Part shown: positions 1-45,816 of the stretch, one piece after another
Position numbering within the stretch: position 1 is the first letter of the stretch
Layout: every line of letters starts with the position of its first letter
Virus record (IMG/VR): IMGVR_UViG_3300019854_000029
Location: 56,360 to 120,359 of that record
Direction: 5' to 3' (one strand)
DNA from: a virus
Length of the DNA: 64,000 nt
The notes under the pieces: model-generated
Database searches by the model: none
Told to the model about the DNA's origin: nothing
Seen by the model: the letters and a program-made list of their open reading frames with translations, nothing else
Program-made: the position numbers and the translations under genes

Positions 1-1
1 C

Positions 2-1495
2 ACCTCCGGCATTCGTCGCACGTTCACGAAGTACGTTGTCGGCTGGGGCGTGCAGGAAACACTGTCCTACGGTGACCGTAACGCTGCTGCCGACCCCGAA
101 GAGGTTGAGAAGCCTACTCGCAAGTGGAACGTCATCTTTGACTTCCAGCCCGAAGGCACCTCGAACGTCGGTGAATCAAAGTACACCGACGGCAAGAACA
201 TTTCCGACACCCTGACCGCTTCCGCTAAGAAGGATTACGGTGACGGTAAGTGGCTCAAGATCGACGGCAAGAACGTCCCCGTCAAGTACGAAGGCACTGC
301 CTACTACACTGGCGAGAACGCTCCCACCGCCGCTAACGAGGTTCCCGCCGACGCTAAGGCCATTGGTACCGCAACCCTGACGTTCGACGGTGAAGGCACC
401 CAGACCGCCACCGTCACCCCCACCGAAGAACTCAAGCCCGGTTTCGTCACTTGGGTTTGGAAGGTCACCAAGAACAATCAGGGCGACTACTCGAAGTACA
501 TCCACGAGGACTGGACTGACGGTTACGCTGCCGCCAACGAGACGAACAGCTTCCGCCACAAGGCCAAGATCAACACTGCTGCGTCTATCCGCACCACTCA
601 GGGCGGCACCTACATGGTGGACGACATGTGGGTTGACGGCCTGCCCACCAACCACGGTGAGTTCACCGGCAACGCCGAGTTCGATAAGGACGGCGCAACC
701 CTGAAGCAGGACCTCTTGTTCTTCCCCAAGGGCACTGAGGTTAAGGAAGCCAACAAGGACAAGGCCGAGGTCATTTCCTCGACCACCATCCCCGCCAAGA
801 ACGGTTTCTACCCGTCGATTGGCACCAACGGCTTCAAGCTGAAGGAAGGCGCTTCCGGCACTTACGTGTTCGTCACCTCGTTCGAGGGCGACAGCCGCGT
901 TGAGGCTTACACCTCTAGCGTTGAGGACGTGACCGAACAGTACACGGTCGATACCCCCGAAGAGACCCCGACCATCGGAACCACCGCCACCGACACCAAG
1001 GATGGCGACAAGGAAATCAACCCCACCGGCCCCGTGTCGATCACTGACCGCGTGTGCTACGAGAACCTGAAGCCCGGTAAGGAATACACCCTGACCGGCA
1101 CTCTGATGGACAAGACCACTGGTGAGGCTTTCCGTAACGAGAAGGGTGAGGACATTTCGTCCTCGACCACTTTCACCGCTAAGGAAGCTAAGGGCTGTGA
1201 GAACGTTGTTTTCGAGACCACTGGTGAGACCCTGAAGGGCCACGACACTGTTGTTTTCGAGAACATGTTCTCTGACAACAAGCGCATCGCTGTCCACGCT
1301 GACATCAACGACGAGGGCCAGACCGTTCACCCGAAGGTCACCCCCTCGACCACTGCTCCTGCTGCTCCTGCCCCCAAGGGCGGTAAGCTCGCACACACTG
1401 GTGCTATCACTGGTGGCGTGCTCGCTGTTGCGGGTGCCTCCGCTATTGGTGGTGGCGTTCTGCTCATGAAGCGTCGCCGCAACGAGGAGGACTGA
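2..1495 (+). CDS. Cell-wall-anchored adhesin, C-terminal portion (5' end lies upstream of the window); Thr-Gln ester-bond / VaFE-type repeat plus LAHTG sortase signal
   Basis: The frame is open from nt 2, so the GTG at 50 in the ORF track is probably internal. The repeat IGTTATD...YENLKPGKEYTLTG...TVVFENMF...HADINDEGQTV carries the HxDxxDxxQ signature of ester-bond domains. The C-terminus is LAHTG + hydrophobic helix + KRRRNEED. Antisense ORF 176-1396 is treated as a shadow. Confidence 0.75.
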   Translation, partial: TSGIRRTFTKYVVGWGVQETLSYGDRNAAADPEEVEKPTRKWNVIFDFQPEGTSNVGESKYTDGKNISDTLTASAKKDYGDGKWLKIDGKNVPVKYEGTAYYTGENAPTAANEVPADAKAIGTATLTFDGEGTQTATVTPTEELKPGFVTWVWKVTKNNQGDYSKYIHEDWTDGYAAANETNSFRHKAKINTAASIRTTQGGTYMVDDMWVDGLPTNHGEFTGNAEFDKDGATLKQDLLFFPKGTEVKEANKDKAEVISSTTIPAKNGFYPSIGTNGFKLKEGASGTYVFVTSFEGDSRVEAYTSSVEDVTEQYTVDTPEETPTIGTTATDTKDGDKEINPTGPVSITDRVCYENLKPGKEYTLTGTLMDKTTGEAFRNEKGEDISSSTTFTAKEAKGCENVVFETTGETLKGHDTVVFENMFSDNKRIAVHADINDEGQTVHPKVTPSTTAPAAPAPKGGKLAHTGAITGGVLAVAGASAIGGGVLLMKRRRNEED

Positions 1496-1530
1496 GCTGA
1501 GGTAATCTCAGTTCTGAGAATCAGTTAAAG

Positions 1531-1580
1531 GGAACGCCCCGCTTACGTCTTTGTGAGCGGGGCGTTCCTGTATCTTCATT
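1531..1580 (+). terminator. Rho-independent-type terminator after the adhesin gene
   Basis: 13-bp perfect stem GGAACGCCCCGCT (1531-1543) / AGCGGGGCGTTCC (1556-1568), followed by a T-rich tail TGTATCTTCATT. Confidence 0.7.
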
Positions 1581-1656
1581 AAACCACTGGTTGTTGCGCG
1601 CGCACCCATAGAGGGAACGGCCCCCGCGAGTGGCCTACTGCGCGGGCAAACCCTAC

Positions 1657-1696
1657 GTGACACGCTCGGGCCATACTGCTACTATTTAGGTACAAC
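1657..1696 (+). promoter_or_regulatory. Promoter module copy P1 (GTGACA-N17-TACTAT followed by TTAGGTACAAC)
   Basis: The core GCCATACTGCTACTATTTAGGTACAAC is nearly identical to 50374-50399. TGc precedes the -10 (extended -10). It lies ~100 nt upstream of the ATG at 1797. Confidence 0.6.
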
Positions 1697-1796
1697 ACAA
1701 ACCCGTAGGGCGCACCAACATCAACACAAACCCTTAAAACGCGCCACCAACACGCATTCCTTAAACACATCACACCCAACAGGACAGGACACGGCA

Positions 1797-2654
1797 ATGA
1801 ACGTTTCGTTCCAGTTAGTACACTTCTCAGGCCACCGCGTAGACGCGGAAGCCGCAATCACCGCTAACGCGCTCAATGCAAGAGTCGATAAAGAGATCGT
1901 CCTACAAGGCACCATTGACTCGATAGCCTGCCGTAGTGACGGGGAGTTCGTAGACTCTCCCGTGCCGTTCACCGTGCAATACGTTGAGATCGCCGCCGTC
2001 ATCCCCGCATACATCATCCGCGTCTATGACAACGAACACCGCATTCTCCTCAAAGACCTGCAAGACGGGCGGCTCACAACAGGCTCAGAAGAACACCTAG
2101 TGCGCCTGCTCGTAGAACGCGCGGGAGAAACGTATCTACAGTGGGCCGACGACCCGCGTAAGCATCACTACTACAGGGGACTGCCCTACAAGGACACTTA
2201 CCGGGTACTTGATGGTAAGCTCGCGCAGGCGTGCCTCGTGCGCTACGGGAAGTCATTGCACCGCACTCTACGAGCCAACACGGGACTACACCATCAGGTC
2301 GTCACATGCCTGCTCACTATCCATAACCTCATGAGCGGCACGAAGAGTGACCTAGAGAAAGAACGCTACTGCCTGAGCCTCGTGCGCATCTACCAAGGCA
2401 AAGCACAAGTCATCCCCTACGGGAGCCGCGCCTACAACAACCCGCCAGCCGGTTCCATCGACATCGACTACGCGCTCATTCACACGCTGCCAATCCTGAA
2501 ATACTCCGCGCCAGTTGACCCACACGAACGCGGAACAGTCTCGATCATCCACAAGTACAAAGCACTCGGATACTCCAAGACCGATATCGCTTTCATCCTC
2601 GGCCTAGACGAAACCAGCGTCGAAAACGCGCTCAAAGAACAACCACGCTACTGA
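1797..2654 (+). CDS. Hypothetical protein, member 1 of a three-gene tandem paralog family with a C-terminal HTH-like segment
   Basis: 285-aa ORF. The C-terminus ...IIHKYKALGYSKTDIAFILGLDETSVENALKE aligns with the C-termini of the next two ORFs. Confidence 0.6.
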   Translation: MNVSFQLVHFSGHRVDAEAAITANALNARVDKEIVLQGTIDSIACRSDGEFVDSPVPFTVQYVEIAAVIPAYIIRVYDNEHRILLKDLQDGRLTTGSEEHLVRLLVERAGETYLQWADDPRKHHYYRGLPYKDTYRVLDGKLAQACLVRYGKSLHRTLRANTGLHHQVVTCLLTIHNLMSGTKSDLEKERYCLSLVRIYQGKAQVIPYGSRAYNNPPAGSIDIDYALIHTLPILKYSAPVDPHERGTVSIIHKYKALGYSKTDIAFILGLDETSVENALKEQPRY

Positions 2655-2684
2655 CCAAACCCAACCACAACAACAGGAAAAACA

Positions 2685-3548
2685 ATGCAAACACAAACCA
2701 CAAGCACGCCGTATGACCTCTATATGACGCTCTCCGAAATAGAGCTTTATTCAATAAGGGGGCAAATCCATTCATTCGTCAATCTCCGCACTGGCGTAAG
2801 GTCTCGACCTAAGCGCAACCTATACTTCACAGCTCGACGGGAAGATCGTTATGGGTTTACAACATGGGTTGTATCCTTGCGCACAGAAACCCCTCACTCA
2901 AAGACATTCTGGCGCATGAGCTTCAGTCCTCACCCCGGACACATGTATGAGCCGAGTAGCTACGAATCCCTCCAAGAGGCAAAAACGGCAGTTACCAAAG
3001 CATTTTCAGCGTTCATGGACATGGGTGACCATACTGCCACCGGACACGCAAAGTGGGGCCTGTGCTACACCAACGTCCGAGTGCTCCTTAAAGCCAAGAT
3101 TTTGCAGATGATTGCCCCTCAAGATGAGGTCGCAGCAAACATCAACAGCTCGATAGTTCAGCGCCTTAGAGAAGATGCTCTCTCTGAAATTGTTGAAAAG
3201 CTCGAACAAGTAGCGCGCTACACCAGAGAACCATCAGGGCTTCCCACCCGGAAGGCTATGTACCGTGCGCTGGGAGTACGCATTACAGCCGACGGCAAAA
3301 TCTCCGTCATCGGGGCCAGCCAACAGCAAACAAGAAATAAGAAACTTGGAATCGACTTCCGTTACGGCGAAGTCATGGACACGCCTATATATGCACTAGG
3401 CTGCTCTGACACCGACACAAGCATTTGGGCGTACACAAAAGAAGGGTATGCCGCGTCAGATATCTCCGCCGTACTCGGCCTCCCTACCGTGGCGGAAGTG
3501 AAGCGCATACAAAAACTTCCCGGCCTCACATGGAAGATGGGGGAGTGA
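2685..3548 (+). CDS. Hypothetical protein, tandem paralog 2 (C-terminal HTH-like)
   Basis: 287 aa. It shares the block EDRYGFTTWVVSL with NDRFGFTTWVITI of the next ORF, and the C-terminus YTKEGYAASDISAVLGLPTVAEVKRIQ. Confidence 0.65.
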   Translation: MQTQTTSTPYDLYMTLSEIELYSIRGQIHSFVNLRTGVRSRPKRNLYFTARREDRYGFTTWVVSLRTETPHSKTFWRMSFSPHPGHMYEPSSYESLQEAKTAVTKAFSAFMDMGDHTATGHAKWGLCYTNVRVLLKAKILQMIAPQDEVAANINSSIVQRLREDALSEIVEKLEQVARYTREPSGLPTRKAMYRALGVRITADGKISVIGASQQQTRNKKLGIDFRYGEVMDTPIYALGCSDTDTSIWAYTKEGYAASDISAVLGLPTVAEVKRIQKLPGLTWKMGE

Positions 3549-3552
3549 AACC

Positions 3553-4368
3553 GTGATTCGCATTGAAGATACTCAACGCTACACGTGCCAGCTCGGCCCT
3601 ATCGCGCAACGCTGCGGGCTTTACGAAGCGCCTATTGAAAGTTTCTGCGATACAGAAACCGGACTCAACGTCCGCCCCAATCAGAACAACACGCTATCGC
3701 TTGTCGCTAAGAGAAACGACCGATTCGGGTTCACAACATGGGTAATCACTATTAAGCGGAACAGAAAAATAGCGTTCCGAATGGGAGTCACCCCTCAGTT
3801 CCTAAGTGCGGTCAGCGACAAGAGACCCACCCTCGCAGAAAACGCCGATACCCTGCACCAGTGCGTGAACTTTGTGTTCAACACATACGTTCACGTAGCA
3901 AGTCGTGGAGAACTGAAAGCGATTCTTCTTTACGAAAACCCGCAGCTCCTATGGGAAGAAAAAGTACGCGCATATAGCACTCCCCGATATGCGCACCTCT
4001 TAGACGCTCCCCTCGGTGATTCCACCCCGCTAGAACAAATCGCCACGATCATGCGCGAAACGGCTGATGCGCTCTCAAACACCCCGAGAAGCAGGAACAC
4101 AAAGAAGCGCGCCACGCTACTAAGCGCCGGATGTGCTTTAGGGATAGACGGTTCACTGCTCCGTATTTTCAATCCCCTCACCCCCACAAGTAACGCACAC
4201 CTTGGCATCTACCAATACGGGCATGTTGTACGTGCTCCCATCCTTGCTGTGGGGTGCCCGAACGCTAAAGCAAGTGTCTTTGCGTTCGCAAAAGAAGGCT
4301 ACGGAAGAAGAATGATCTCTACACTAACCGGTATTCCTCTTAGCACTATCAGCGATTTCCTGCGTTAG
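3553..4368 (+). CDS. Hypothetical protein, tandem paralog 3 (C-terminal HTH-like)
   Basis: 271 aa with a GTG start 4 nt after the previous stop, preceded by GGGGGAG. The C-terminus is FAKEGYGRRMISTLTGIPLSTISDFLR. Confidence 0.65.
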   Translation: MIRIEDTQRYTCQLGPIAQRCGLYEAPIESFCDTETGLNVRPNQNNTLSLVAKRNDRFGFTTWVITIKRNRKIAFRMGVTPQFLSAVSDKRPTLAENADTLHQCVNFVFNTYVHVASRGELKAILLYENPQLLWEEKVRAYSTPRYAHLLDAPLGDSTPLEQIATIMRETADALSNTPRSRNTKKRATLLSAGCALGIDGSLLRIFNPLTPTSNAHLGIYQYGHVVRAPILAVGCPNAKASVFAFAKEGYGRRMISTLTGIPLSTISDFLR

Positions 4369-4380
4369 GCTAAGCGAAAT

Positions 4381-4425
4381 GGCCCTACTGCTTTTCGTTG
4401 CAGTGGGGCCGTTTTGGTTTATTTC
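4381..4425 (+). terminator. Rho-independent-type terminator after the paralog triplet
   Basis: 11-bp stem GGCCCTACTGC (4381-4391) / GCAGTGGGGCC (4400-4410, one G-U pair), followed by GTTTTGGTTTATTT. Confidence 0.7.
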
Positions 4426-4452
4426 GGCCTAGTTTTTCGGCGTTTTCAACGC

Positions 4453-4740
4453 CTTGGTCATGAACATTTTTCTTGGTCATATAGTTGTGTTTCTTGGTTA
4501 TGGAAATCGCGTTCCTTGGTTATGGGAATTATTTCCTTGGTTATATAGTTTCCATTTTTCACGCGGTCGTGTTTTTGGGGCGTGTTTTACGGCTTGGTCA
4601 TGAAGTTTCACTTCTTGGTCATGAAGATTCATTCCTTGGTCATATAGTTTCCGGTTTGTAGCACGATGCTTCGGTTGGTCACGTTTTGAGCGTCTAGTCC
4701 ACGTTTTGAGACGCTATAGCACGCTCGGCGGCTTGGTCAC
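4453..4740 (+). repeat. Iteron array: 8 exact CTTGGTYAT boxes plus 2 degenerate boxes, mostly at 19-22 bp spacing
   Basis: Exact boxes start at 4453, 4472, 4493, 4515, 4536 (cluster 1) and 4593, 4614, 4635 (cluster 2). Degenerate boxes are GTTGGTCAC at 4674 and CTTGGTCAC at 4732. The extended units are TYCTTGGTYAT followed by GAA, ATAGTT or GGRAA. CACGTTTTGAG also occurs twice (4680, 4700). Confidence 0.85.
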
Positions 4741-4816
4741 GGTCTCCCTTTTACAGCACGCTACCCCTAGAGACCTGTTTCGTTGGGAACACTAGCATCC
4801 CGGCGTGTTGATGACG

Positions 4817-4981
4817 TTTTTTGATGACTGATGTAAACTGATGTAAGAAAACTGATGAAAAACACCATCAGAAAACCCCCGCAACGACTTCCCAAACACC
4901 GGAGGTCTCCGAAAACACGGGGGTAAGACCAAACACCCGCCCCCGGTTGATGTGTTTTGACGACGAAAACCATCAACAAAA
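4817..4981. repeat. Left arm (IR-L) of a 165-bp inverted repeat; its partner is at 63836-64000
   Basis: The reverse complement of 63836-64000 matches 4817-4981 with about 6 mismatches by eye. The arm is rich in TGATG words and internal palindromes (CTGATG-N8-CATCAG; GTTGATG-N18-CATCAAC). It ends 25 nt upstream of the ATG at 5006. Confidence 0.9.
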
Positions 4982-5005
4982 TAGGCTACGAAAGACGCAA
5001 AACCC

Positions 5006-5404
5006 ATGAGTGAAGAGCTAGAAGAAACACCTGAGTACGGTTACATCGTCGGTTCGGGGGACGCGCGGCAAGAGCTGCGCTGGCGGTTCATCGTCGCTTT
5101 GGGCGCGTCCATGTCTAAAAACCCGCGTCGAGAACTAGCTGCCTACTGTCGCACGGTCGTTAAGAACGGGGAAGAGGCATTGACTGGTTCGAGCACGTTG
5201 CGTCTCCACCTGCTTGCTAGTGGCGTGGATGTTCTGCGTGAGTGTTTAGCCGATGAGGTCGATAGCGTGGAGACGTTAACTGGGGTCCTCATGGAAGCGA
5301 TGCCCGGTGGGCCGGAGTGTTGGAAGGCGTGGGATAAGACTGCGACAGGTGTTGACGGGGCGCGTAGCGTGGTCCCGTTGCTTTTGCGTGCGTTGCTTTT
5401 GTGA
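5006..5404 (+). CDS. Hypothetical protein (132 aa), first gene downstream of IR-L
   Basis: ATG ORF with GAAAGA upstream. No recognisable motif. Confidence 0.6.
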   Translation: MSEELEETPEYGYIVGSGDARQELRWRFIVALGASMSKNPRRELAAYCRTVVKNGEEALTGSSTLRLHLLASGVDVLRECLADEVDSVETLTGVLMEAMPGGPECWKAWDKTATGVDGARSVVPLLLRALLL

Positions 5405-5491
5405 CCGGCCTCGTTCGGCTGGCGCGTGGTGAGCGTTTAACTTAACTGTCGTGCGCGCGCGTAGTAAATGTTTCTTATCCAGTGAGGCTAA

Positions 5492-6334
5492 GTGTCGTTA
5501 GATCATGGAAGGACTTTTACTGTGTCGAGCGCGAATGTCATGCCGCCGTATATGCAGATGCAAGAGTGGGACCTTGATGAGCAAGACAAGGTTATTAAGC
5601 GCGCGTTTCGCGTGTGGAAGGAAACTCGTCCCTCAAGGTACTTGCAGAGCTTGTCGATGATTGTCCCGCAAGTGACACCGGAGGTGTTGCCTCCTGATAT
5701 GCGTCACCCGCGTGTGGAGATTAAAGAGACGTGGGATGAGTCCATTCACCCGGACTATAAGAAACTACTCGGTGCTCCTGCCGTGCTGTATGACGGGCCA
5801 CTGCTGCGCCCTAAGTTCAATGAGTATCGGAAGTACTTGGGGGATGAGGAAGTCCGTTGCCCGTCTGGTAGCGTCGCTGTACTGTCTGTTGATATTGGGC
5901 TTTCGCCCGAACAGTTTAAGAACCCGCCCGAGGGATACATGTATGTTCGCGCGGTCGGCCCGAACGCTGAGTATCCCGGTGGCGGCTGGGTGTACTGTAT
6001 TCCGAAAGTTTTCGTGAAAGAACAACCCCAGTACGCACTGTTCTTGTCTCGCCACACTCTGTCGGACACTGTTGACTCCTACAAGGTGTATATCGACGGG
6101 TATAGCGAGATGGTGTACTTGTCTATTGTCCGACAGTCCCCATACACAACTCGTTATGCGACTAAAGCTCCTATCGCTATTGCTGGGAGCTACGATCCGA
6201 ACGTTGTTCTCGCTTACGCTGAGGAAGTTCTACGCGGTTGGGAAGCGCATGGGATTATCCCCCCGCGAGCGCGATACACGCTTTCCACGCAAGAGTGCTT
6301 GTCGGTGTCTCACGCGAAACAGTTGGACGCTTGA
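5492..6334 (+). CDS. Hypothetical protein (280 aa)
   Basis: GTG start preceded by GAGG at 5 nt spacing. The overlapping frames 5712-6017 (+) and 5755-6069 (-) are shorter shadows. Confidence 0.65.
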   Translation: MSLDHGRTFTVSSANVMPPYMQMQEWDLDEQDKVIKRAFRVWKETRPSRYLQSLSMIVPQVTPEVLPPDMRHPRVEIKETWDESIHPDYKKLLGAPAVLYDGPLLRPKFNEYRKYLGDEEVRCPSGSVAVLSVDIGLSPEQFKNPPEGYMYVRAVGPNAEYPGGGWVYCIPKVFVKEQPQYALFLSRHTLSDTVDSYKVYIDGYSEMVYLSIVRQSPYTTRYATKAPIAIAGSYDPNVVLAYAEEVLRGWEAHGIIPPRARYTLSTQECLSVSHAKQLDA

Positions 6335-6360
6335 TGCAAGACGGCTTCTAGTTTCCTGAG

Positions 6361-6400
6361 AAAACCCGCTAGTGGTGGCATACGCGGCTGGCGGGTTTTT
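6361..6400 (+). terminator. Terminator-like hairpin with a T-run
   Basis: AAACCCGC (6362-6369) pairs with GCGGGTTT (6391-6398), followed by TTT. A second 8-bp hairpin, GTGGCGCT (6467-6474) / AGCGCCAC (6490-6497), lies in the leader of the next gene. Confidence 0.55.
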
Positions 6401-6578
6401 ATACTAATTAACAGGCACATGGGTAATGCCCTCCTTTCTGGTTGTTGTGCTTTTGGTTTGGAGCATGTGGCGCTGTCCTCTCAAGGGATAGCGCCACAGC
6501 TGTTTATGCGGCAGTGTGGTCGCGAGGTGGCGTTCTAAGCGTGAGTGTTGTTCCAAGCCGAGGAAGGAAAAGAGAAAA

Positions 6579-7688
6579 ATGGAACTGCTGATGATGGTTG
6601 TTCACCCGACTGCCACTAAGGATTACTTGGCTGTGTGGCGACTGTCGGGCGTTAACGCCTCGAAAGAGATCACGCCTGACAACGTGAGGGCTGCTGCGCT
6701 CAAGCACAAGGATGAGGCTTCTGGTGACGCGAAGAAAGTGATTGACGTTGTTGCTGACATTGAGGGCGCGGAAAGTGAAGTGCTTGGTGCCGGAGTACTG
6801 TTCACGCCTCAAGCTGTTAAGGGCATTGCCGAGAGCCACTTGAAGGAGCGCCCCGACTACGAGGAGTGCGTCGTCGTTGACTACTGTTCTTCCACGCTCC
6901 TTTGGGGCAAGGACGGCGAGTGGGAGACCATGCCGCTATTCACGGACGACGCGGGTAACGCGGACGACGCATCGGACACGCCCCTCGCTGAGCTATTGAA
7001 GCGCGTCGAGGTCTCAGACCTGACCGCGTTCACTGGCGAGAAGGCTCGTATTCGCACAGAACGATCAGTGAAGCGCCACTGGCCTTACGTGTTGAAGGTC
7101 AAGAAGGTCCGCGAGGTTCCCGATGAGGAACTTACCGGCCTGCGTAAAGACATTAAGGGCCTGCGCCTGTTGGATATTGCGCTTGAGACCGGCGTTGTTC
7201 ACCTGCTTGTCCCTAACTGTAAGGACGTGCGCGGGGGAGAGGCGCAACGTTACTTGTGGCATAAGCAACTGGCGCGCGCCATCTACGCTTTCGAGCGAGA
7301 TAGGGTTGCTCAAAAGAAGATGCAAGCCGGTCAGGAGAAAATCTTGATTCGCTACGGTGAGTCAGAAAACCCGGTGTGTGTGGCGATCACAGCGGAAGCG
7401 TTGAAGCGGGAGCTTACTATCGACGGCGAACCCGAAAAGGGCGCTACGAAGCACGTCTACACGGCAGATGGCATCACGATCATTCGCTACGGTGAGCGTG
7501 GCTGGGAATGGAGTTACTTCGATATTGGGGAGGGGAAGCACCTAGTGCAGCGCACCGGCCAGAACGGTGAAGGGATATTCGTTCTCAAACAGAGCGCATG
7601 GTGTCTGCTACGGGATGCCGTGGACTTCAAGGCCCCCGCAACCGAGGAAGAAATGCTCGCCTACATTCTCCGGTCGTTGAACAGCTAA
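6579..7688 (+). CDS. Hypothetical protein (369 aa)
   Basis: I prefer the ATG at 6579 (MELLMMVV...) because AGGAAGGAAAAGAG lies directly upstream. The ORF-track start at 6516 lacks an RBS. Confidence 0.65.
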   Translation: MELLMMVVHPTATKDYLAVWRLSGVNASKEITPDNVRAAALKHKDEASGDAKKVIDVVADIEGAESEVLGAGVLFTPQAVKGIAESHLKERPDYEECVVVDYCSSTLLWGKDGEWETMPLFTDDAGNADDASDTPLAELLKRVEVSDLTAFTGEKARIRTERSVKRHWPYVLKVKKVREVPDEELTGLRKDIKGLRLLDIALETGVVHLLVPNCKDVRGGEAQRYLWHKQLARAIYAFERDRVAQKKMQAGQEKILIRYGESENPVCVAITAEALKRELTIDGEPEKGATKHVYTADGITIIRYGERGWEWSYFDIGEGKHLVQRTGQNGEGIFVLKQSAWCLLRDAVDFKAPATEEEMLAYILRSLNS

Positions 7689-7740
7689 TAAGGCCACTAC
7701 AGCGCCTTGTCGTAAAGCAAGAGGCGGCGAGTAAAAGAGA

Positions 7741-7790
7741 GCGGGCCGAGACAGTCTGTGGTGACTGGTCTCGGCCCGCTCGTTTTTTGT
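7741..7790. terminator. Bidirectional terminator between convergent genes
   Basis: 12-bp perfect stem GCGGGCCGAGAC (7741-7752) / GTCTCGGCCCGC (7768-7779), followed by TCGTTTTTTGTG. Confidence 0.8.
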
Positions 7791-7801
7791 GTCTGCACGG
7801 T

Positions 7802-8101
7802 CTAGCTTGCAATGAGTTCTTGCCTACGAGCAAGAGTTTCACGCATTTCCTTGCGCTCCTTCATGGTGGTTCCACCCCAAATACCGCGTTCCTCGTCCTC
7901 TGAGGTGAGTGCGGCTTCTAGGCACTCGATACGCACGGGGCACTGTGAGCACAGTTCGATTGCCAGTCTGGCTTGTGCGGTCTGTCCCGCGCCGGGGAAC
8001 CAAATGTCCGGGTCAGTTTGGGAGCAGATTCCTTGCTGCCGCCATGATTCTTTGCTGTTGGTGATGATGATGTCGTTAACGAACTTGCGCATTGGTCGCA
8101 T
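7802..8101 (-). CDS. WhiB-like (Wbl) Fe-S transcription factor
   Basis: Four Cys in C-X24-C-X2-C-X5-C (CSQTD...CSQCPVRIEC), followed by the GIWGG turn and a basic tail. The start is set at 8101 (MRPMRKF) to avoid overlap with the HNH gene; the ORF extends to 8149. Confidence 0.8.
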   Translation of the reverse strand: MRPMRKFVNDIIITNSKESWRQQGICSQTDPDIWFPGAGQTAQARLAIELCSQCPVRIECLEAALTSEDEERGIWGGTTMKERKEMRETLARRQELIAS

Positions 8102-8135
8102 AATGGTGGGCTTTCTGGTTTGGGTTTGGTTTGGT

Positions 8136-8513
8136 TTACGCGAGTGCAATGTACGTGTAGGAGCCGTCCGGGAACAGGAAGCGCGGCCCGTCCGGGTAGG
8201 AGACGGGAATATCAGCGGGGTCAGACCATTGGGAGACGGCCCACCCGTGCTCTCGGGCTTCTTCCCGGTGGGTTTCCACGTACCCGTGACATCCGGTGGT
8301 GCCGCTTCCGCATAGGACGATGAGGTTCACGGGACTGTTGATTTCTTCGTCTTTCGTGCCGCCCATGCCACGCGCTTTACGGTGCTGGATAGAGGACTGA
8401 ATGTAGGTGATGTCTTTCCCGCACCGTGCGCACCGCCACCCGTCACGGTTGTACACCAACATGCGGGTTTCAGGGCTGGGGCCGGTAGACCTGTGAGACT
8501 TACGTGAGGCCAT
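8136..8513 (-). CDS. HNH endonuclease
   Basis: RDGWRCARCGK...IQHRKARGMGG...NLIVLCGSGTTGCHG (CxxC, H-N-H core, second Cys/His pair). Its start lies 1 nt after the RecT-like stop. Confidence 0.75.
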   Translation of the reverse strand: MASRKSHRSTGPSPETRMLVYNRDGWRCARCGKDITYIQSSIQHRKARGMGGTKDEEINSPVNLIVLCGSGTTGCHGYVETHREEAREHGWAVSQWSDPADIPVSYPDGPRFLFPDGSYTYIALA

Positions 8514-8514
8514 G

Positions 8515-9798
8515 TCAGATCAGTCCTTCTTCGCCGTCAAGCTCGTTCTCGTCGAGAGCGTCCTCGGGCATGTCTACGCCACCAAAGCCCAAGCGCTCGT
8601 GAATGTTGAGGAGCATCCGGCGCACTGTGTCGTCGTCGAGAGTGTGGACGGGCACGGGGTGTGCGAACCCAAAGTCGGCGTAGAGGTTTTCGGTTTCTAC
8701 GTAGTCGAGGCGCTGATCGAGGAGCTGGGCGAGTTCACGCTGTGCTGCGCTCAAAAGCGGGGGACGCTGCTGCTCGGGAGCTGGGGCGGGCTGGGGTGCG
8801 GGCTGCTGCATGACAGGAGCGGGAGTGGGCATGTTGCGCGGAGGTTGAGGCGCATACCCCTGAACGGGCGCGGGAGCATTGTCTTGCTTTACGGGGACGC
8901 TTTGCGCGTGAGCGCGCTGCTTTTCCATTTCCCTGAGCAATGCTGTTGCTTCACTGGGGCGCATCGTCTCATACGTGCGAGAAGGCGCGACGCACTTCTT
9001 AATGAGCGCGCGCTTAGCGCCGGGGGACATGCCGGTCAACGCTGCGGAGAGCGCTTCAATCTCGGCCTTAATGTCAACGGTTTCCGCCGCGTTGCGCTCG
9101 TGCTCGTAAGAGACAAGGGTGGGGAGGATTTCGGTTGCGAGTTCTTCTGCGGTGCGAGATTGCAGGTCGTCGAGCGTGAACCCGGTGAGGTTTTTGAGGG
9201 TTTCGTCGTCCAACTTGAGGTAGTCGATTTCAGCTTTCACGGGAGCAAATGCGTGCGCGAACTTCTTCTCGTGGTCGGAGGAGACTTCTTCGGGAGTGTA
9301 GATGAGGCCGTTCAGCACGTCGGCTGCGTGACGGCGGCACACTTCAGCGACAGCGCGGTTGGTGAGCATTTCCTGTGTGTGCTGAATCCAGAACGTGCTG
9401 GAACCCCACAAGTGAGCGCGGCGGGCGCGCTGTTCGTCCCACACGCTCGTGTAGGTCTGCTTCTTGGTGCCTGTCGCTGCGGGGCGAGTGAGAGTAACGG
9501 TCGCCGTGTGTGTGGCTTCGTCGTAGGTTTCTTCGAGCGTGAACCCGTGTTTGAGGACTGCTGCGGTCATCATGTTCACGCTGATAGTGGGCTTCACGTC
9601 GCCGGAAGAATCAGGGATGAGGTGGATGCCGTTAAGGACTGCGGAGATGTTAGCGAGTCCGGCGGCTTCGCCCATTTCCATTGCAAAGAGGATTGCGCCC
9701 GCGTTGTGGCGGTAAGCGGTGGGTAGGACGGTGTTGGTGTCTGCGAGAGCGAGGGCGTAGGCGAGACGCTGGTCGAAAGTGAGCTGCGAGAAGTCCAT
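8515..9798 (-). CDS. RecT-family single-strand annealing protein with a long Pro-rich/acidic C-terminal extension
   Basis: ...AILFAMEMGEAAGLANISAVLNGIHLIP...ISVNMMTAAVLKHG... and ...FWIQHTQEMLTNRAVAEVCRRH... resemble conserved RecT blocks. I prefer the start at 9798 (MDFSQL, AGGA upstream); the ORF extends to 9888. Confidence 0.55.
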   Translation of the reverse strand: MDFSQLTFDQRLAYALALADTNTVLPTAYRHNAGAILFAMEMGEAAGLANISAVLNGIHLIPDSSGDVKPTISVNMMTAAVLKHGFTLEETYDEATHTATVTLTRPAATGTKKQTYTSVWDEQRARRAHLWGSSTFWIQHTQEMLTNRAVAEVCRRHAADVLNGLIYTPEEVSSDHEKKFAHAFAPVKAEIDYLKLDDETLKNLTGFTLDDLQSRTAEELATEILPTLVSYEHERNAAETVDIKAEIEALSAALTGMSPGAKRALIKKCVAPSRTYETMRPSEATALLREMEKQRAHAQSVPVKQDNAPAPVQGYAPQPPRNMPTPAPVMQQPAPQPAPAPEQQRPPLLSAAQRELAQLLDQRLDYVETENLYADFGFAHPVPVHTLDDDTVRRMLLNIHERLGFGGVDMPEDALDENELDGEEGLI

Positions 9799-9895
9799 TG
9801 TTTCTGGTCCTAGTGGTTGTTGTGGTTTGGTGTGTGAAAGTTTTGGGGCGGCGGGCGCGCTTTTGGTTTGGGAGAGCACGCCCGCCACAGTGGGT

Positions 9896-10444
9896 TTACT
9901 TGGTGGGGAGTTCGTCGTCGCCCATCTTGAGAGTGGTCAGGAGGGACTTGACGGTGACGGCGGTGTCGAGTGCGTGAGCGCGCTGTTCCTCAGTGAGAGA
10001 GACGCGGAGCGTGCCGCGCATGGCTTCTTCGGACTTGACAGACACGCCTGCGGGGAGTTCCCCGCCTTCGCGTTCGATGATCGAGTCAAGTTCACGGTAT
10101 GCCTTAGATGCTGCGGGGAACGTTACGGTCATGACTGCGCCATGATCGTAAATCTCATGTTCTTCGCACCACGTGGCGAATGCTGCTGCGTCGTCGATCT
10201 TGTACGCGCTTCCGGGGCGAACCCACGTGATCGTGCCGGAGGTTCCCATTCCGTCGCCGCCGAACTTGTAGCCGCCCTTCTGCTTGGTTCCTGCGAAACG
10301 CTCGTCAAGATTGTCGAGGATATAGCCGGAGGCCATAGCGCGCGCGTTCTTCAATGCCTTTTCGAGGACGCTAACGATGATGAGAACCTTGGGTGCGAGG
10401 ATGTCCCACTTCTTAGAGGGACGGAGCTTCTTCACATCGGCCAT
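9896..10444 (-). CDS. Hypothetical protein (182 aa) upstream of the recT-like gene
   Basis: ATG with AAAGGAAA upstream. Its size and position would fit a Gam-like or other recombination accessory protein, but no motif was recognised. Confidence 0.5.
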   Translation of the reverse strand: MADVKKLRPSKKWDILAPKVLIIVSVLEKALKNARAMASGYILDNLDERFAGTKQKGGYKFGGDGMGTSGTITWVRPGSAYKIDDAAAFATWCEEHEIYDHGAVMTVTFPAASKAYRELDSIIEREGGELPAGVSVKSEEAMRGTLRVSLTEEQRAHALDTAVTVKSLLTTLKMGDDELPTK

Positions 10445-10507
10445 GATGATGTTTCCTTTCGATTGAACCGATACAGGTAAACGTATGGGTGTGGGGGAGG
10501 TTGGGAG

Positions 10508-10642
10508 CTAGTTCTTGCCGCCGCGTCGTACTGCGTGGGCTTCGGTCTTGTAAGCCTGAGCTTTCTTGCGGGCAATTGCGATCATGTGTCGCGCTTTTTC
10601 TCGCTCGTAGCGTTCTTGTGCTTTGGTTTGCGTGGTGGTCAT
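10508..10642 (-). CDS. Possible small basic protein (44 aa), not in the ORF track
   Basis: ATG...TAG ORF MTTTQTKAQERYEREKARHMIAIARKKAQAYKTEAHAVRRGGKN, lying between promoter copy P2 and the next gene. The RBS is weak. Confidence 0.3.
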   Translation of the reverse strand: MTTTQTKAQERYEREKARHMIAIARKKAQAYKTEAHAVRRGGKN

Positions 10643-10690
10643 TGGTTTGGTCTTTCGGTTTTTATTGGTGGCGTTGCAACCACCCTTATA

Positions 10691-10716
10691 GTGTACCTAA
10701 ATTATGCGACTATGGC
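10691..10716 (-). promoter_or_regulatory. Promoter module copy P2
   Basis: The minus-strand reading is GCCATAGTCGCATAATTTAGGTACAC (-10 CATAAT). It overlaps the TAG stop of the nuclease gene and lies ~50 nt upstream of 10642. Confidence 0.5.
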
Positions 10717-11462
10717 TAGTCGGTCAGGCCGCATTTTTGGAGCGTGTCAGCCAAGGCTTTCTTCTCAGCACTCGTCACGCTCAGCCCATACTTGGCTTTC
10801 ACTGCGACCTGCCTAGAGGCGTATGTGCAAGCGAACGCCTCGTTGGGGGGCATCCATTGGCTTGCGTCCTTGGAGCCTTTAGCTTGGTTGTCGCTGCCGT
10901 TTACTGCGAGCAGGTTCTCGGGGTCGTTTGCGAGGGCTTCGCGCTGGCCTTGGGTGAGCTTGTCAGCGCCACTACGCCATGCGTTCTCTAGAGCAACAAC
11001 ATGGTCGATTTGGACCTTGGAAGCGTTCTTCTTGGAGAAAACGATTTGGGTGCCCGAGTAGGGGTCTGCGAGGCTACCGGAGACGATGACGCACTTGTTT
11101 GCTTTCTTCGCTTCGTCTGTCCGGTAGGAGATGTTGGTTAGGTCGCGGGCGAGAATGTCATTGCGAGTGTCACACCCGTTGTGGTCTACGTCTTTCCATG
11201 CGGGGCCAAAGTCGGCTACGCGGTCGTATTTCCCGTTTGTTTTGGGGTTGTCTACGACTTTGAGGGAGTCGAGGGTTGAGAGTGTCCCGCCCTGTGCGGG
11301 GGTCGCTTGGATACTGACCGCATTGGTCGGGTTTGCCGTGGGGGTAGGCGAGTGGTGCTCCACTCCGATAGCCCAAAAGATTGCAAGCACGATGATGGCT
11401 GCGAGAGTGAAAACAAGCATTGCTTTCACATTGGACGCGGCAGGGCTTTTCTTTTTGCGCAT
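10716..11462 (-). CDS. Membrane-anchored extracellular DUF1524/HNH-type nuclease
   Basis: N-terminal TM segment (AMLVFTLAAIIVLAIFWAIG). Motifs are DHNGCDTRNDILARDL...DPYSG...QIDHVVALENAWRSGA...LANDPENLLAVNGSDNQAKGSKDASQWMPPN, typical of actinobacterial DUF1524 proteins. Confidence 0.75.
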   Translation of the reverse strand: MRKKKSPAASNVKAMLVFTLAAIIVLAIFWAIGVEHHSPTPTANPTNAVSIQATPAQGGTLSTLDSLKVVDNPKTNGKYDRVADFGPAWKDVDHNGCDTRNDILARDLTNISYRTDEAKKANKCVIVSGSLADPYSGTQIVFSKKNASKVQIDHVVALENAWRSGADKLTQGQREALANDPENLLAVNGSDNQAKGSKDASQWMPPNEAFACTYASRQVAVKAKYGLSVTSAEKKALADTLQKCGLTD

Positions 11463-11578
11463 TGCTTATGCTCCTATGTGGTTGTTGGTTGGTTTGGTGC
11501 CTTTAGACTAACAACCGTGACTGGCAGTTGCGTACAGTTTGAGACGGTTTCTACTGTCTGATATTTCATCCACGTGAT

Positions 11579-12109
11579 GTGCAGCACGCTTTCAGGGATG
11601 GTCCATACTCTGAGCACATGGTCCCACCACTTGAACTGGAAAAGTCTCCCCTCGACTTCCTCTCCCACACGTGCGCCGCACTGTCCGGCGATAGTGACAC
11701 GCTCATTCACTCTGAGGACGAATCCAGCCCAGAATGGCTGTGGCTACGCCTCATCAACGCTTCACCCTCCCCAATCGGGCGGACAGACTTCGCGCCCATG
11801 CTCATACAACAGCTCTGCGATGCTCCCACGGGTAATCCGCTTGGCTTCTACCGTGTCCGTATTCATGGCGGGTCCGTGTACTTCACGTGCGACACCACTA
11901 AGGGAGAAAGCGTCCCACGTCGTGCGGCTGCTGCTATCCGCAAAATGGTGGAAGCCGTAGACAAGGGACTCCCAAATCCTTTTTGGCCCGCTGAGTGGGA
12001 CCACCTTCTCACTCGCGGGGGAATAACGTTCACCCCGTGGGGAGAGTGCGCGCCACGCATGACACAAACATGGGAAGAAGCCATGCAAGACATGACACGG
12101 TGTGCCTAA
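11579..12109 (+). CDS. Hypothetical protein (176 aa), lone plus-strand gene in a minus-strand block
   Basis: Longest ORF in the region. The GTG start is uncertain (alternative ATG at 11618). Competing frames 11574-11960 (+) and 11762-12118 (-) are judged less likely. Confidence 0.45.
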   Translation: MQHAFRDGPYSEHMVPPLELEKSPLDFLSHTCAALSGDSDTLIHSEDESSPEWLWLRLINASPSPIGRTDFAPMLIQQLCDAPTGNPLGFYRVRIHGGSVYFTCDTTKGESVPRRAAAAIRKMVEAVDKGLPNPFWPAEWDHLLTRGGITFTPWGECAPRMTQTWEEAMQDMTRCA

Positions 12110-12554: not shown

Positions 12555-13135
12555 AGGTTGAGTCGCCCCTTGCTCCATCGGACGCGACCGAGTTTGATTT
12601 CTTTCTCAATGGCCCTGCGGGGGAAGAACTGTTCGGCTTCTTGGATGGTTGCTCCGGGGTGTTCTTCTAGGAACGCTCTGAGCGTCGTAGGGGCCGTGTA
12701 CACGCTCTCGGTGACCTTCCGGGCCTCCGGGCGTTCTACGGGCTTCCTAGCGGGCATGTGAGGCTCTGTAGAGGCTTTACGTGCCACTTGCTCTACCGCG
12801 CGCGGTTGGATAGCTGGACGCGGCTTCGACGCTTCCGCCACAAGCTCATCTTCCGACAGTTCCCCAAGGAGCATTGTCAGCATGTCAGGAGTCAACAACT
12901 GTTCTTCTTGAGCCAGACGCAACGGCTTAAGGTACTTACTGCGATCAGCGGGGGTAATGCGACGCGGGTGGGAGAGGAAACTGAACCCTTGGGCGCGTTC
13001 CTTCGCCTCGAACTCAGCGAAAAACGCTGCTTTCACCTCGTCATAGTTCCATGTGCCGATCACGCGGCCCAGATGATACGGGCCTTGAAGATCGTTCAAG
13101 CGCTTACCCACCGTAGGGTCGAGTTCAAGATTCAT
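12551..13135 (-). CDS. Hypothetical protein (194 aa)
   Basis: The start is set at 13135 (MNLELDP), giving an ATGA overlap with the stop of the FtsK-like gene. Confidence 0.6.
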   Translation of the reverse strand: MNLELDPTVGKRLNDLQGPYHLGRVIGTWNYDEVKAAFFAEFEAKERAQGFSFLSHPRRITPADRSKYLKPLRLAQEEQLLTPDMLTMLLGELSEDELVAEASKPRPAIQPRAVEQVARKASTEPHMPARKPVERPEARKVTESVYTAPTTLRAFLEEHPGATIQEAEQFFPRRAIEKEIKLGRVRWSKGRLNL

Positions 13136-22225: not shown

Positions 22226-22283
22226 TCTTATGCTTTCGGTTGATGTGATGGTTCGTTGAGTCTATGTAACATACTAACCTATA

Positions 22284-22309
22284 GTGTACCTATTTTATAG
22301 GAGTATGGC
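22284..22309 (-). promoter_or_regulatory. Promoter module copy P3
   Basis: The minus-strand reading is GCCATACTCCTATAAAATAGGTACAC (-10 TATAAA), ~60 nt upstream of the ATG at 22225. Confidence 0.5.
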
Positions 22310-33089: not shown

Positions 33090-33125
33090 GTCTTAACTTG
33101 ATGCTTTCTTTCTTACAGGCAGGTG

Positions 33126-33151
33126 GTGTGCCTGAATTATCGGATAATGGC
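33126..33151 (-). promoter_or_regulatory. Promoter module copy P4
   Basis: The minus-strand reading is GCCATTATCCGATAATTCAGGCACAC. The -10 GATAAT overlaps the TAA stop of 33137-33964 and lies ~47 nt upstream of the ATG at 33089. Confidence 0.5.
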
Positions 33152-44569: not shown

Positions 44570-45655
44570 TTAGGCGGCGACGGGTGTTTTCGCGAGGTGT
44601 TCGGCAACGAGAATGTTCGCCGCTGCGCCCACACGGCGGGGCGACATAGAGGGGTTAGCGGAGCGTACTTGCTCATAGAACATGTCGAACAGTCGGCTGC
44701 GTTCACGCGATTCTGCGTCCTCTTCGGCATCGAGCATGGCTTCTACGGCAGCGTCTTGCCTGCTGCGAGCTTCTTCTGCCTGCTTGCGGGCCGCTTCCTG
44801 CTTCTGGGCGGGCGACACGTCGGGGTTGATCTTGTTTTCCATGCGGAAACGGAGGAAAGCGAACATGTTATGCACGTTGGACGGCATACCCTCGCTGAGG
44901 ATTGACGCGATTTCTACGTGCATCCACCCGATGTTGAGGCGAGCTTGGACAAGCTGGTACATTTCCTCGATCTGCGTGTCAGTCCACGCTTCTACGCCCA
45001 CGCCTTGAGGCATACACGAGGCGACGATCTCACGCTTAGAACGCCCATTACGGGCACGGGCCTGCATCGCTGCTTCCGCTTTGAGAACACGTTCACGCTT
45101 ACGAGCATTCATACGCTTTTCGCGCTTACGGGCACGGGCTTCCTTAATCGCCGCGCGCTCTTCGCTAGTGGAGCGAACGTAGGCAACAGCGTCACGAACA
45201 GTGGAAGCAACCTGCTCAATGGGAGACTCGATCTCTTCCTCAGCAACAGGCTCAAGGAGAATAAGCTCAGGGGCTTGCGGTTCCCACGGGCCGAAACGGT
45301 TAATGGTTACAGGCTTACGGGTAGAGCCGTCATAACGGTAGCCTTCAAGCCACATTTCAATGGTCGGAATGTGAATCGTGTGTACTGCGCTAGTGCGGTG
45401 CTTCACGCCGCGAGCGTCCGTCCAGTACCGGTGCTGGGTGTGCATGAGACCGAGTTCCCTGAAGCGCTTGAGTACTTTCTCAAGGTAGCTTTTTGAGCAT
45501 CCGATCTCGCGGGACATCGTGTCTAGGCTCTTCCAAATCTGCCACGAGTTCTCGTTAGCGTTTTTAACGAGATAGAAGAGAATATCTTGTTCCTTGAACG
45601 TCATTGCGATGACGGTGACGATGCTTTTAGCTGCACGGATTAGTGCGCGGGACAT
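44570..45655 (-). CDS. Winged-helix DNA-binding protein (361 aa), candidate replication initiator or replication-relaxation protein
   Basis: AAGGAG RBS. The N-terminal domain ...SREIGCSKSYLEKVLKRFRELGLMHTQHRYWTDARGVKHRTSAVHTIHIPTIEMWLEGYRYDGSTRKPV is paralogous to 46181-46597. The function is inferred from architecture and position only. Confidence 0.4.
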   Translation of the reverse strand: MSRALIRAAKSIVTVIAMTFKEQDILFYLVKNANENSWQIWKSLDTMSREIGCSKSYLEKVLKRFRELGLMHTQHRYWTDARGVKHRTSAVHTIHIPTIEMWLEGYRYDGSTRKPVTINRFGPWEPQAPELILLEPVAEEEIESPIEQVASTVRDAVAYVRSTSEERAAIKEARARKREKRMNARKRERVLKAEAAMQARARNGRSKREIVASCMPQGVGVEAWTDTQIEEMYQLVQARLNIGWMHVEIASILSEGMPSNVHNMFAFLRFRMENKINPDVSPAQKQEAARKQAEEARSRQDAAVEAMLDAEEDAESRERSRLFDMFYEQVRSANPSMSPRRVGAAANILVAEHLAKTPVAA

Positions 45656-45750
45656 AAAAAATACTCCTTGGTATTAAGAAGAATCATTGCGTGCTTCATA
45701 GGCTATAGCCGCTCTCCCGGTCTGTCAAACACGGGGAGGAAAAAATTTTT

Positions 45751-45816
45751 AGGCCCAGTTGGAATGAACCAACCGGGCCTAACGCAAATTCTTCTTAACT
45801 CACGAGGAGTTAAGAA
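45751..45816. other. Two adjacent strong hairpins in the divergent intergenic region (ori/oriT candidate)
   Basis: AGGCCCAGTTGG (45751-45762) / CCAACCGGGCCT (45769-45780), 12 bp with 1 mismatch. TTCTTAACTC (45792-45801) / GAGTTAAGAA (45807-45816), 10 bp perfect. Confidence 0.6.

Follow-up and report, generated by a model that had tools for sequence, protein, structure and literature searches.

The stretch of DNA analysed here, hereafter called the window, covers 64,000 nucleotides (positions 56,360 to 120,359 of the IMG/VR virus record IMGVR_UViG_3300019854_000029) and carries near its left end an array of phased direct repeats of the 9-mer CTTGGTYAT. This array lies in a non-coding stretch of 637 bp (4369-5005), which a preliminary description of the same sequence had called the longest of the window; the statement is plausible, the other long gap (53590-54441) containing open reading frames (ORFs) of 77 and 115 aa. 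Three paralogous genes with a C-terminal helix-turn-helix (HTH) read toward the array from the left and a three-gene operon starts on its right, while an actin-like ATPase and a small putative adaptor protein are encoded close to the other end of the window. The array, its duplication on the element and its association with the actin-like genes in distant relatives are described below, together with the tentative view that it works as the centromere of an actin-like segregation system.

The CTTGGTYAT array and its conservation

Eight exact copies of CTTGGTYAT are found in the 64-kb window, all of them on the + strand (4453, 4472, 4493, 4515, 4536, 4593, 4614, and 4635), against a mean of 0.63 and a maximum of 3 copies in dinucleotide-preserving shuffles. 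With the degenerate sites GTTGGTCAC (4674) and CTTGGTCAC (4732), whose offsets are kept in every relative, the series amounts to ten. The preliminary description was thus accurate as regards the positions and orientation of the exact copies, the existence of the degenerate ones, the spacing of 19-22 bp within clusters and the jump of 57 bp between them, the successive distances between the ten sites being 19, 21, 22, and 21 bp, then 57 bp, 21 and 21 bp, and finally 39 and 58 bp. When the window was scanned with a weight matrix derived from 121 units of this element and related ones, nine of the ten sites reached at least 14.4 bits and the tenth (4672/4674) 7.7 bits only, with no site above 8.8 bits anywhere outside the array.

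The first cluster (4453-4550, + strand) consists of five sites that lie 19-22 bp apart, in which the core is followed by an extension of about 6 nt. It is separated from the second by a spacer (4551-4592, +) in which two CGTGTTTT motifs occur within the conserved block GTTTTTGGGGCGYGTTTTACG and where a second factor may bind. The second cluster (4593-4649, +) has three sites, at 4593, 4614, and 4635, that are 21 bp apart, and the degenerate pair (4674-4740, +) stands on either side of two CACGTTTTGAG repeats and of the block TCCACGTTTTGAGACGCTATAGC, which is almost invariant. The extended units do come in three flavours, as previously noticed, but they are not locked to position: the fourth site reads GGGAAT, ATAGTT, or GAAGTT depending on the relative.

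The same array was found in related elements, a comparison that the preliminary description had proposed. Among 12 module copies from about 7 elements, 10 keep the ten sites at offsets 14, 33, 54, 76, 97, 154, 175, 196, 235, and 293. The two exceptions concern the related loci L018, where the second cluster is duplicated for a total of 13 sites, and L004, where one 22-bp unit is lost, with all other spacings unchanged, so that the number of units changes by whole units. Besides, invariant positions are more frequent in the core (72/90) than at the non-core positions of the array (134/216; Fisher p = 0.002). The array is, from these comparisons, a genuine and selected set of predicted binding sites.

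The terminator reported upstream of the array is present as well: a 17-pair stem (4375-4416, 9 GC pairs) followed by a T-rich tail forms a terminator-like hairpin (4375-4425, +), which ends the operon of the three paralogs. It is located outside the repeated module described in the next section, just beyond its edge, and its sequence is kept in L001-L004.

A search of 185,579 species representatives with a three-unit pattern returned 74 matches, none of them in an actinobacterial genome going by the record titles and presumably all unrelated repeats, so that this set yielded no host genome. Among viral contigs, six matches to the pattern (L006, L011, L013, L015, L016, and L021) were likewise set aside as unrelated repeats. 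One of these, the 9-kb contig L021 (IMGVR_UViG_3300031867_007193), carries at 433-484 three ACCTTGGTCATTT units that are 21-22 bp apart, that is, an independent small iteron array whose core is the same as the window motif.

Two inverted copies of a 556-bp module on a circular element

While the preliminary description had placed the array between the terminator and an inverted repeat, the array turns out to be the outer half of that repeat. Copy A of the repeated module (4440-4995, +) begins 13 bp 5' of the first array site, continues from the array into a conserved promoter/leader block and stops some 10 nt short of the ATG at 5006. Of copy B, which is on the - strand, only the inner 177 bp (63824-64000) fall within the window; they are 94% identical to copy A and read into a 215-aa gene, the copy-B array being located beyond position 64000. 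The full copy B is visible in the related contigs L012, L014, L007, and L025. In a window-wide repeat search, 4817-4985 was found to be 96% complementary to 63832-64000, the match being stopped by the window end; the second copy being cut there, only 4817-4985 had previously been seen as repeated. When positions 4000-5600 were compared by BLAST with related loci, copy-A loci matched all the way from the paralog gene on the left of the array to the 132-aa gene on its right, whereas copy-B loci aligned over 4440-4995 only, and the repeated unit therefore measures 556 bp. Within one element, the two copies are 86-90% identical and no closer to each other than to the copies of other elements. They intermingle in a tree, with fixed A/B differences at the inner edge only, which indicates that the copies exchange sequence over evolutionary time. 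Both the duplication of the array and the ultra-conserved block that accompanies it go beyond what had been described.

This block (4801-4900, +) is 97-100% identical between copies and contains five direct TGATG motifs and the hairpin CTGATGAAAAACACCATCAG, with 70% A+T at 4816-4875, which ranks among the top four A+T-rich 60-mers of the window. It is presumed to be a promoter/operator together with the start of a shared leader. Directly 5' of the start codon, the inverted repeat GTTGATGTGTTT..AAAACCATCAAC (4946-4977, +) may serve as an operator or as a hairpin of the leader. On the + strand, the leader is more stably folded than its shuffled versions (z = -3.1), and comparison of the module region with Rfam gave no credible family.

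The module stops short of two unrelated genes, of 132 and 215 aa, whose products have no mutual similarity. Behind copy A, the operon 5006-7688 (+) encodes proteins of 132, 280, and 390 aa with no known domains and uses the same module promoter/leader as the operon behind copy B. The first gene of the latter (63167-63814, -; 215 aa) has a sigma-70 region-4-like HTH visible in its sequence, and its homologue in the distant relative L127 matches Pfam Sigma70_r4 and HTH_38 at sub-threshold level. In terms of composition, the first inner-side genes of both copies (5006-7688 and 62209-63814) are the only ones with a coding strand that is G-rich or neutral at third codon positions, the others being C-rich. 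This third-position GC (GC3) skew mostly tracks the gene strand; the anomaly is symmetrical beside both copies and confined to 2-3 kb.

At the scale of the whole molecule, a scan with the three-unit pattern showed that each of five IMG/VR contigs of 109-123 kb has two oppositely oriented arrays separated by about 60 kb, for instance at 9.6 kb (+) and 69.7 kb (-) of a 120.4-kb contig and at 41.1 kb (-) and 101.6 kb (+) of a 123.0-kb contig, while two contigs of 62.6 and 64.4 kb have both ends inside arrays. The related contigs are permuted relative to each other, and in a contig of 122,138 bp the last 47 bp repeat the first 47 bp exactly, within copy B, which shows the molecule to be circular. 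The element is a plasmid-like circle of about 122 kb from uncultured oral actinobacteria. Its gene content is, judging by the predicted products, that of a Gram-positive, actinobacterial conjugative plasmid and not that of a phage, as it includes an LAHTG-anchored T-Q-ester adhesin, an FtsK/SpoIIIE ATPase, a DUF87/VirB4-like ATPase, and a Ser/Thr kinase, besides RecT, HNH, WhiB, SSB, and the actin-like ATPase.

Megablast of window positions 1-12000 against plasmid and phage collections gave no match, nor did tblastn of the third paralog against plasmids, and a literature search on the element found no relevant work. The only cultured relatives found are 350-kb Bacillus thuringiensis plasmids (e.g. 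NZ_CP045024.1), whose size equals that of pXO16 of serovar israelensis, and whose VirB4-like ATPase and annotated ParM/StbA are 31% and 27% identical to the proteins of the element. They share with it the order of an actin-like gene followed by genes of about 580, 270, and 690 aa. Unlike the element, they belong to a firmicute host, are three times larger, and showed no large phased array within 9 kb of parM, at most three AAACTAG-like units that lie 21-22 bp apart being found before parM.

Several side observations concern the assemblies. An IS605-family tnpB is inserted at differing places in L002 (14094-15218), L004 (241-1779, with tnpA too), and L007 (8523-9653), which reveals recent insertion sequence activity within the element family. 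In L001, L003, L019, L023, L027, L028, L030, and L031, short-read contigs break off within the array or module or where it ends, and the 62.6-kb contig both starts and ends 66 bp into an array. As a consequence of the two-copy repeat, assemblies of the element are fragmented, and half-genome contigs are liable to be taken for complete elements.

The actin-like gene cluster and the arrays of distant relatives

The actin-like ATPase, of the ParM/Alp type, is encoded at 59446-60621 on the - strand, that is, the same strand as copy B and 3.2 kb downstream of it. It matches Pfam MreB-like_C (7e-9) and Alp7A_like_C as well as the PHROG partition protein family (4.5e-22), and the 27% identity mentioned above is to this protein. 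Two genes after it lies the gene of a 168-aa protein (57618-58124, -), the candidate centromere-binding adaptor. In between is always found the gene of a 421-aa protein (58093-59358, -), which has homologues in L112 (E 2e-15), L127, and L123. The 168-aa protein combines a conserved N-terminal part of about 55 aa, an acidic variable linker, and a conserved C-terminal tip, a domain layout that, at the level of sequence, is ParR-like. The N-terminal part is conserved in all classes of relatives (30-36% identity, E 1e-8 to 3e-8) and is modelled at low confidence (AlphaFold2, pLDDT 53) as strand-helix-helix (strand 6-13, helices 15-25 and 29-41).

By using an alignment of the actin-like protein, distant loci were retrieved at three further levels of divergence. 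In the first class (L122-L127; GC 62%), whose actin-like ATPase is 40% identical to that of the window, the order is array, sigma-region-4-like gene, 344-aa and 278-aa homologues, actin-like gene, 421-aa homologue, adaptor, and 514-aa homologue, as it is behind copy B of the window. The array of this 40% class has about 22 units, RGGTTRYACC / CTTGGTAC, phased by 21-22 bp over about 490 bp, with an internal tandem duplication of about 235 bp. No second module copy was detected there with two exact probes, which a diverged copy could escape, and the array appears to be single-copy. In lineages at about 28-30% (L112, L128, and L113), the large array has the 344-aa homologue on one side and a UvrD-type helicase gene on the other, and consists of about 16 units TTAGTC, about 9 units TTTTCCGAA, and about 8 units ATTTCYGAA, respectively, all in a 21-bp register; no sigma-like gene was detected beside the arrays of these three. 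L112 has in addition 4-6 units of its array motif 50-175 bp before the ATG of the actin-like gene, L128 and L113 have two units of their own array motif, 21-22 bp apart, before this ATG, and similar paired units are visible at the same place in L129 and L134. Since units of the same motif stand before the actin-like gene, a single protein would recognise the large array as well as the actin-gene promoter, which is how centromere-binding proteins behave.

Despite the turnover of the motif between lineages, some resemblance is kept: TTAGTTATATGAT of L112 resembles TTGGTTATATAGT of the window, and the odd unit TAGTCCACG is common to both, its form in L127 being AGGTCCACACG. The number of sites per genome is similar too, with 10 + 10 in the window element, about 22 in L127, and about 16 + 5 in L112. 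Linkage of an array to the actin-like cluster thus persists across deep divergence, and the phased array is, on this comparative evidence, old and conserved as a cis element of the cluster in which the predicted actin-like operon lies. The array motif and the adaptor N-terminus change together between classes, and such turnover is as expected of a putative specific binder that would co-evolve with its sites. The 168-aa protein is by inference the best candidate for binding the array.

The preliminary description had named among the obvious binders the three paralogs encoded upstream of copy A (1797-4368, +; 285, 287, and 271 aa). Their C-terminal HTH is real: the last 40 residues or so match HTH proteins, namely PDB 2x48, SdiA, and sigma-H region 4 by profile and again 2x48 by fold, while the remainder gave no match, the AlphaFold2 model of the first paralog being poor (pLDDT 66) and its fold search without whole-protein match. 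Copy B is flanked on its array side, beyond the window end, by three longer paralogs (495-498 aa) and an Xre-type HTH gene; as seen in L014 (3193-8214) and L007 (2778-7477), the C-terminal part of the long paralogs, of about 270 aa and including the HTH, aligns with the short ones. Each element thereby has six members of this ORFan family, three beside either module copy, and all of them are oriented toward the array. However, a profile search among 1.84 billion representative proteins returned 19 matches, of which those traced to contigs (P0061, P0067) and those already known are from this same element lineage. Furthermore, the 2.9 kb that precede the array of L127 contained no paralog, and tblastn detected none in the 15-21-kb loci of L123, L128, and L112. 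Because of this confinement to the close lineage and the absence beside the L127 array, the paralogs are unlikely to be the conserved array binder. They may well bind the array in this lineage, and their position at both module copies is striking, but they would not explain what the arrays do in relatives without them.

Two further observations touch the neighbourhood of these genes. A promoter-like motif of 26-30 nt, GCCATA..ATAATTTAGGTACACTATA, occurs six times before operons, including those of paralog 1 and of the actin-like gene: at 1670-1694 and 50374-50398 on the + strand and at 10687-10716, 22280-22309, 33122-33151, and 60674-60703 on the - strand. Its core resembles the promoters of SP6/T7 single-subunit RNA polymerases, and no gene for such a polymerase was seen in the 64-kb window; a related motif stands before the actin-like gene of the 40% class. 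In another part of the window (46181-55943), about 13 small genes of similar size (131-174 aa) follow each other on the + strand, with two tRNA genes among them, at 46854-46927 (called His, anticodon ATG) and 50714-50788 (Lys-TTT).

Possible roles of the array

The reading best supported by the comparative evidence, and already put forward in the preliminary description for the partner of the actin-like ATPase, is that the array may be a parC-like centromere and operator of the actin-like system, bound by the 168-aa adaptor; we hold it as our leading, still tentative, explanation. According to this model, adaptor dimers would bind cooperatively the ten same-strand CTTGGTYAT sites, which are about two helical turns apart and clustered as 5 + 3 + 1 + 1, and binding would wrap about 300 bp into a segrosome. 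The latter would capture the growing ends of actin-like filaments, so that copies of the 122-kb circle would be moved apart. As the array is physically fused to the ultra-conserved promoter/leader, its occupancy probably also tunes the operon behind the module. In this lineage, the whole 556-bp module has undergone an inverted duplication, copy B now heading the cluster that contains the actin-like operon and copy A an unrelated three-gene operon about 59 kb away. Both the identity of the binding protein and the partition outcome are what we infer.

Precedents for such an organization come from known systems. Direct repeats upstream of parM are the binding sites of ParR proteins, which autoregulate (PMC9426499), and parC of R1 is made of two sets of five iterons (PMC2241845). 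More generally, in type II ParMRC systems, the parC repeats are bound cooperatively by a small adaptor encoded after the ATPase, and the array regulates transcription (PMC2241845, PMC9426499). The element resembles the parC loci of R1, pB171, pSK41, and the pCW3 family in having same-strand direct repeats, often in two clusters there (5 + 5 in R1) and arranged as 5 + 3 + 2 here, far above chance, together with its own actin-like ATPase, a small conserved adaptor-like protein encoded downstream of it and, in relatives, mini-arrays before the actin-like gene. It differs from them by units that are 21-22 bp apart with variable spacers instead of contiguous, by the extra 421-aa gene between ATPase and adaptor, by the distance of the array from the ATPase gene (3.2 kb, and 55 kb for copy A) whose promoter it does not overlap, by the inverted duplication, and by an adaptor without detectable ribbon-helix-helix (RHH) signature. 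In the actinobacterial prophage CGP3 of Corynebacterium glutamicum, the actin-like AlpC works with the adapter AlpA, which binds repeated alpS sites in the alpAC promoter, and the system is linked to efficient replication and transport of the element DNA (PMC5539076). The likeness is that of a mobile element from actinobacteria that combines an actin-like protein with a non-ParR adaptor and a repeated promoter motif, AlpA and AlpC being compared by description; alpS itself is TTAAnnG, with seven promoter repeats and no inverted duplication described.

A third group of systems shows that centromere sites can also be operators and occur at several places, as for omega/parS of pSM19035, ParG/parH-OF of TP228, and the dispersed sopC of the phage-plasmid N15. 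The present motif similarly occurs in promoter regions at more than one locus of the replicon, which would combine partition and global regulation. Those systems rely on ParA-type ATPases and contiguous 4-7-bp or palindromic units, unlike the actin-like ATPase and two-turn phasing found here.

Several points nevertheless weigh against a centromere read by the 168-aa protein. This protein has no sequence match to any RHH family or solved structure in Pfam, NCBIfam, and PDB, and its structure model has the low confidence already indicated. Known parC units are usually contiguous repeats of 6-20 bp, whereas here a conserved unit of 9-15 bp alternates with 6-12 variable bases, a pattern more typical of plasmid iterons. 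In the window, no site above 6 bits was found by the weight matrix before the actin-like gene (60610-60760), the 67-bp spacer there having a different, promoter-like motif, and the nearest array is four genes, or 3.2 kb, upstream of this gene, with copy A about 55 kb away. Repeats at the promoter of the actin gene, as in parC, are thus found in L112, L128, and L113 but not in this element, which is why the array is described here as one that would work like parC. In addition, the large array of these three relatives abuts a UvrD-type helicase gene, which would fit a role in replication too. Finally, other conserved uncharacterised proteins of the cluster that travel with the arrays could be the binder, the foremost alternative being the 344-aa protein (62209-63243 in the window) and its homologues, whose gene is always a neighbour of the array.

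A replication origin was the other role initially proposed. The module would then be an iteron-type origin (oriV) present twice, where an initiator binds the repeats and the adjacent A+T-rich TGATG block melts, giving twin inverted origins; oriS of herpes simplex virus also lies in an inverted repeat. We regard this as unlikely, and the proposal has lost ground. The array does have a phasing of 21-22 bp, a unit of 9-15 bp with variable spacers, and 5 + 3 + 1 + 1 clusters, which is the classical iteron look of RK2, P1, F, and pPS10; the iteron clusters of RK2 are arranged as 5 + 3 + 1, and iteron origins can have extra clusters elsewhere on the replicon. Yet, whereas RK2 oriV, P1 oriR/incA, and F oriS/incC share with the module the phasing of about 22 bp, the clusters, and the A+T-rich neighbour, no recognisable initiator gene is found beside either copy, the flanking genes being without Rep-family match in Pfam, PHROGs, and NCBIfam. 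The only Rep-like gene is 40 kb away, beside the least stable and most A+T-rich DNA of the window (46015-46094). The 70% A+T, repeat-bearing stretch just inside the array (4816-4875) is therefore non-discriminating as an unwinding element, since the region upstream of the Rep-like gene is more A+T-rich. Besides, the Rep-like protein and its own upstream 15-bp tandem repeats co-vary among close relatives (66-98% identity), independently of the array, while the CTTGGTYAT core is unchanged. The invariant TAGTCCACG is DnaA-box-like, matching the DnaA box, TTGTCCACA, at 7/9 positions, and the helicase gene abutting the large array in distant relatives, with a RecJ-like gene in the cluster, would suit an origin; short arrays of the same motif before the actin-like gene of relatives would be unexpected for an initiator. 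As to the GC3 skew, the inner-side genes deviate from the usual coding-strand skew in the direction of divergent forks, but the signal is limited to 2-3 kb and confounded by gene orientation, and is thus too short to call.

The Rep-like gene (44570-45655, -) encodes a winged-HTH protein of 361 aa that matches an O-like PHROG (6e-5) and, below threshold, Pfam RP-C. The A+T-rich DNA and the 15-bp tandem repeat are both part of its 525-bp upstream region; on the gene strand, the repeat reads ..GCACTATAGGGAAGAG.., which looks like a T7 promoter, with the variants GTCCGGTATAGG and GTCCACTATAGG in relatives. The whole locus (44570-46180) is a candidate alternative origin or immunity/specificity locus.

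A purely transcriptional role, by which the array would be an operator or enhancer-like platform bound by the paralogs or the sigma-region-4-like protein, is not a probable explanation either, and the same doubt applies to its corollary that the two terminal operons of the 59-kb segment would be switched together. It would account well for the duplicated unit being exactly the array plus promoter/leader and stopping about 10 nt before two unrelated start codons, as a copied regulatory cassette would, and for the fact that, in the window class as in the 40% class, the product of the first gene behind the ancestral copy is an HTH protein. The sigma-like gene is, however, not detected beside the arrays of L112, L128, and L113. 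In the same line, three paralogs with a supported C-terminal HTH flank the array side of both copies, and three unit flavours face three paralogs per side, but the flavours are not position-locked and the family, confined to the close lineage, was not detected in the 2.9-kb flank of L127 or, by tblastn, in the loci of L123, L128, and L112. The sites are also numerous and remote, with 10-22 phased units over 300-490 bp at 250-550 bp from the start codon, while bacterial promoters normally use far fewer. Since centromere proteins regulate too, the transcriptional role overlaps the centromere model and does not exclude it.

Combining these roles, the module could be a dual 'centromere/origin plus early promoter' cassette, present as two inverted copies on opposite sides of the circle, a proposal for which we have still less confidence. 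If it were true, the phased sites, about 20 per genome, would be shared out between two segrosomes or twin origins, each copy would be wired to a shared promoter/leader driving a different operon, and the six ORFan paralogs would modulate site occupancy in a lineage-specific way, for example as factors of incompatibility or exclusion. To our knowledge, this layout is otherwise found in herpesvirus inverted repeats (oriS and the shared US1/US12 promoters) and not in bacterial plasmids.

A site for recombination or DNA transfer appears very improbable, be it inverted repeats that flip a segment in the style of the 2-micron plasmid or the P1 C-segment, transposon-like ends, or a clt/oriT-like array for an FtsK-like translocase. 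The two inverted copies do split the circle into nearly equal halves and exchange sequence over evolutionary time, as their intermingling in the tree indicates. Nevertheless, the junctions are constant in all spanning contigs (short paralogs with the 132-aa gene, long paralogs with the 215-aa gene) without any isomer, and the 10-14% difference between the copies of one element argues against ongoing homogenisation; inversion of the 59-kb segment was rejected on these grounds, and it cannot be a conserved function given the apparently single, tandemly duplicated array of the 40% class. Transposon ends of the Tn7/Mu type were rejected as well, because the two segments that the copies delimit both belong to the conserved content of a single circular element; the contigs, either circular or permuted, have no host flanks. 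As for transfer, Streptomyces TraB recognises arrays of 8-bp direct repeats and an FtsK/SpoIIIE-family ATPase is encoded at 13132-15288, but no gamma domain was detected in its product and no recombinase or relaxase gene was found beside the module.

Coming back to the centromere model and to the family as a whole, these elements form a large, almost unannotated group of extrachromosomal elements of 100-230 kb. They occur commonly in human oral metagenomes, have the 350-kb B. thuringiensis plasmids as distant relatives, and lack a defined origin or centromere. The array offers a concrete cis site for their study, with the conserved adaptor, the 344-aa neighbour, and the HTH paralogs as trans candidates, and it could serve as an incompatibility or typing marker or as the basis of a shuttle vector for oral actinobacteria. 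It is unusual for a bacterial replicon to have a centromere-like array duplicated in inverted orientation along with a promoter/leader. Finally, the two inverted copies found here, the one tandemly duplicated array of the 40% class, and the large and small arrays of L112 make up a natural series in which the evolution of segrosome architecture may be followed.

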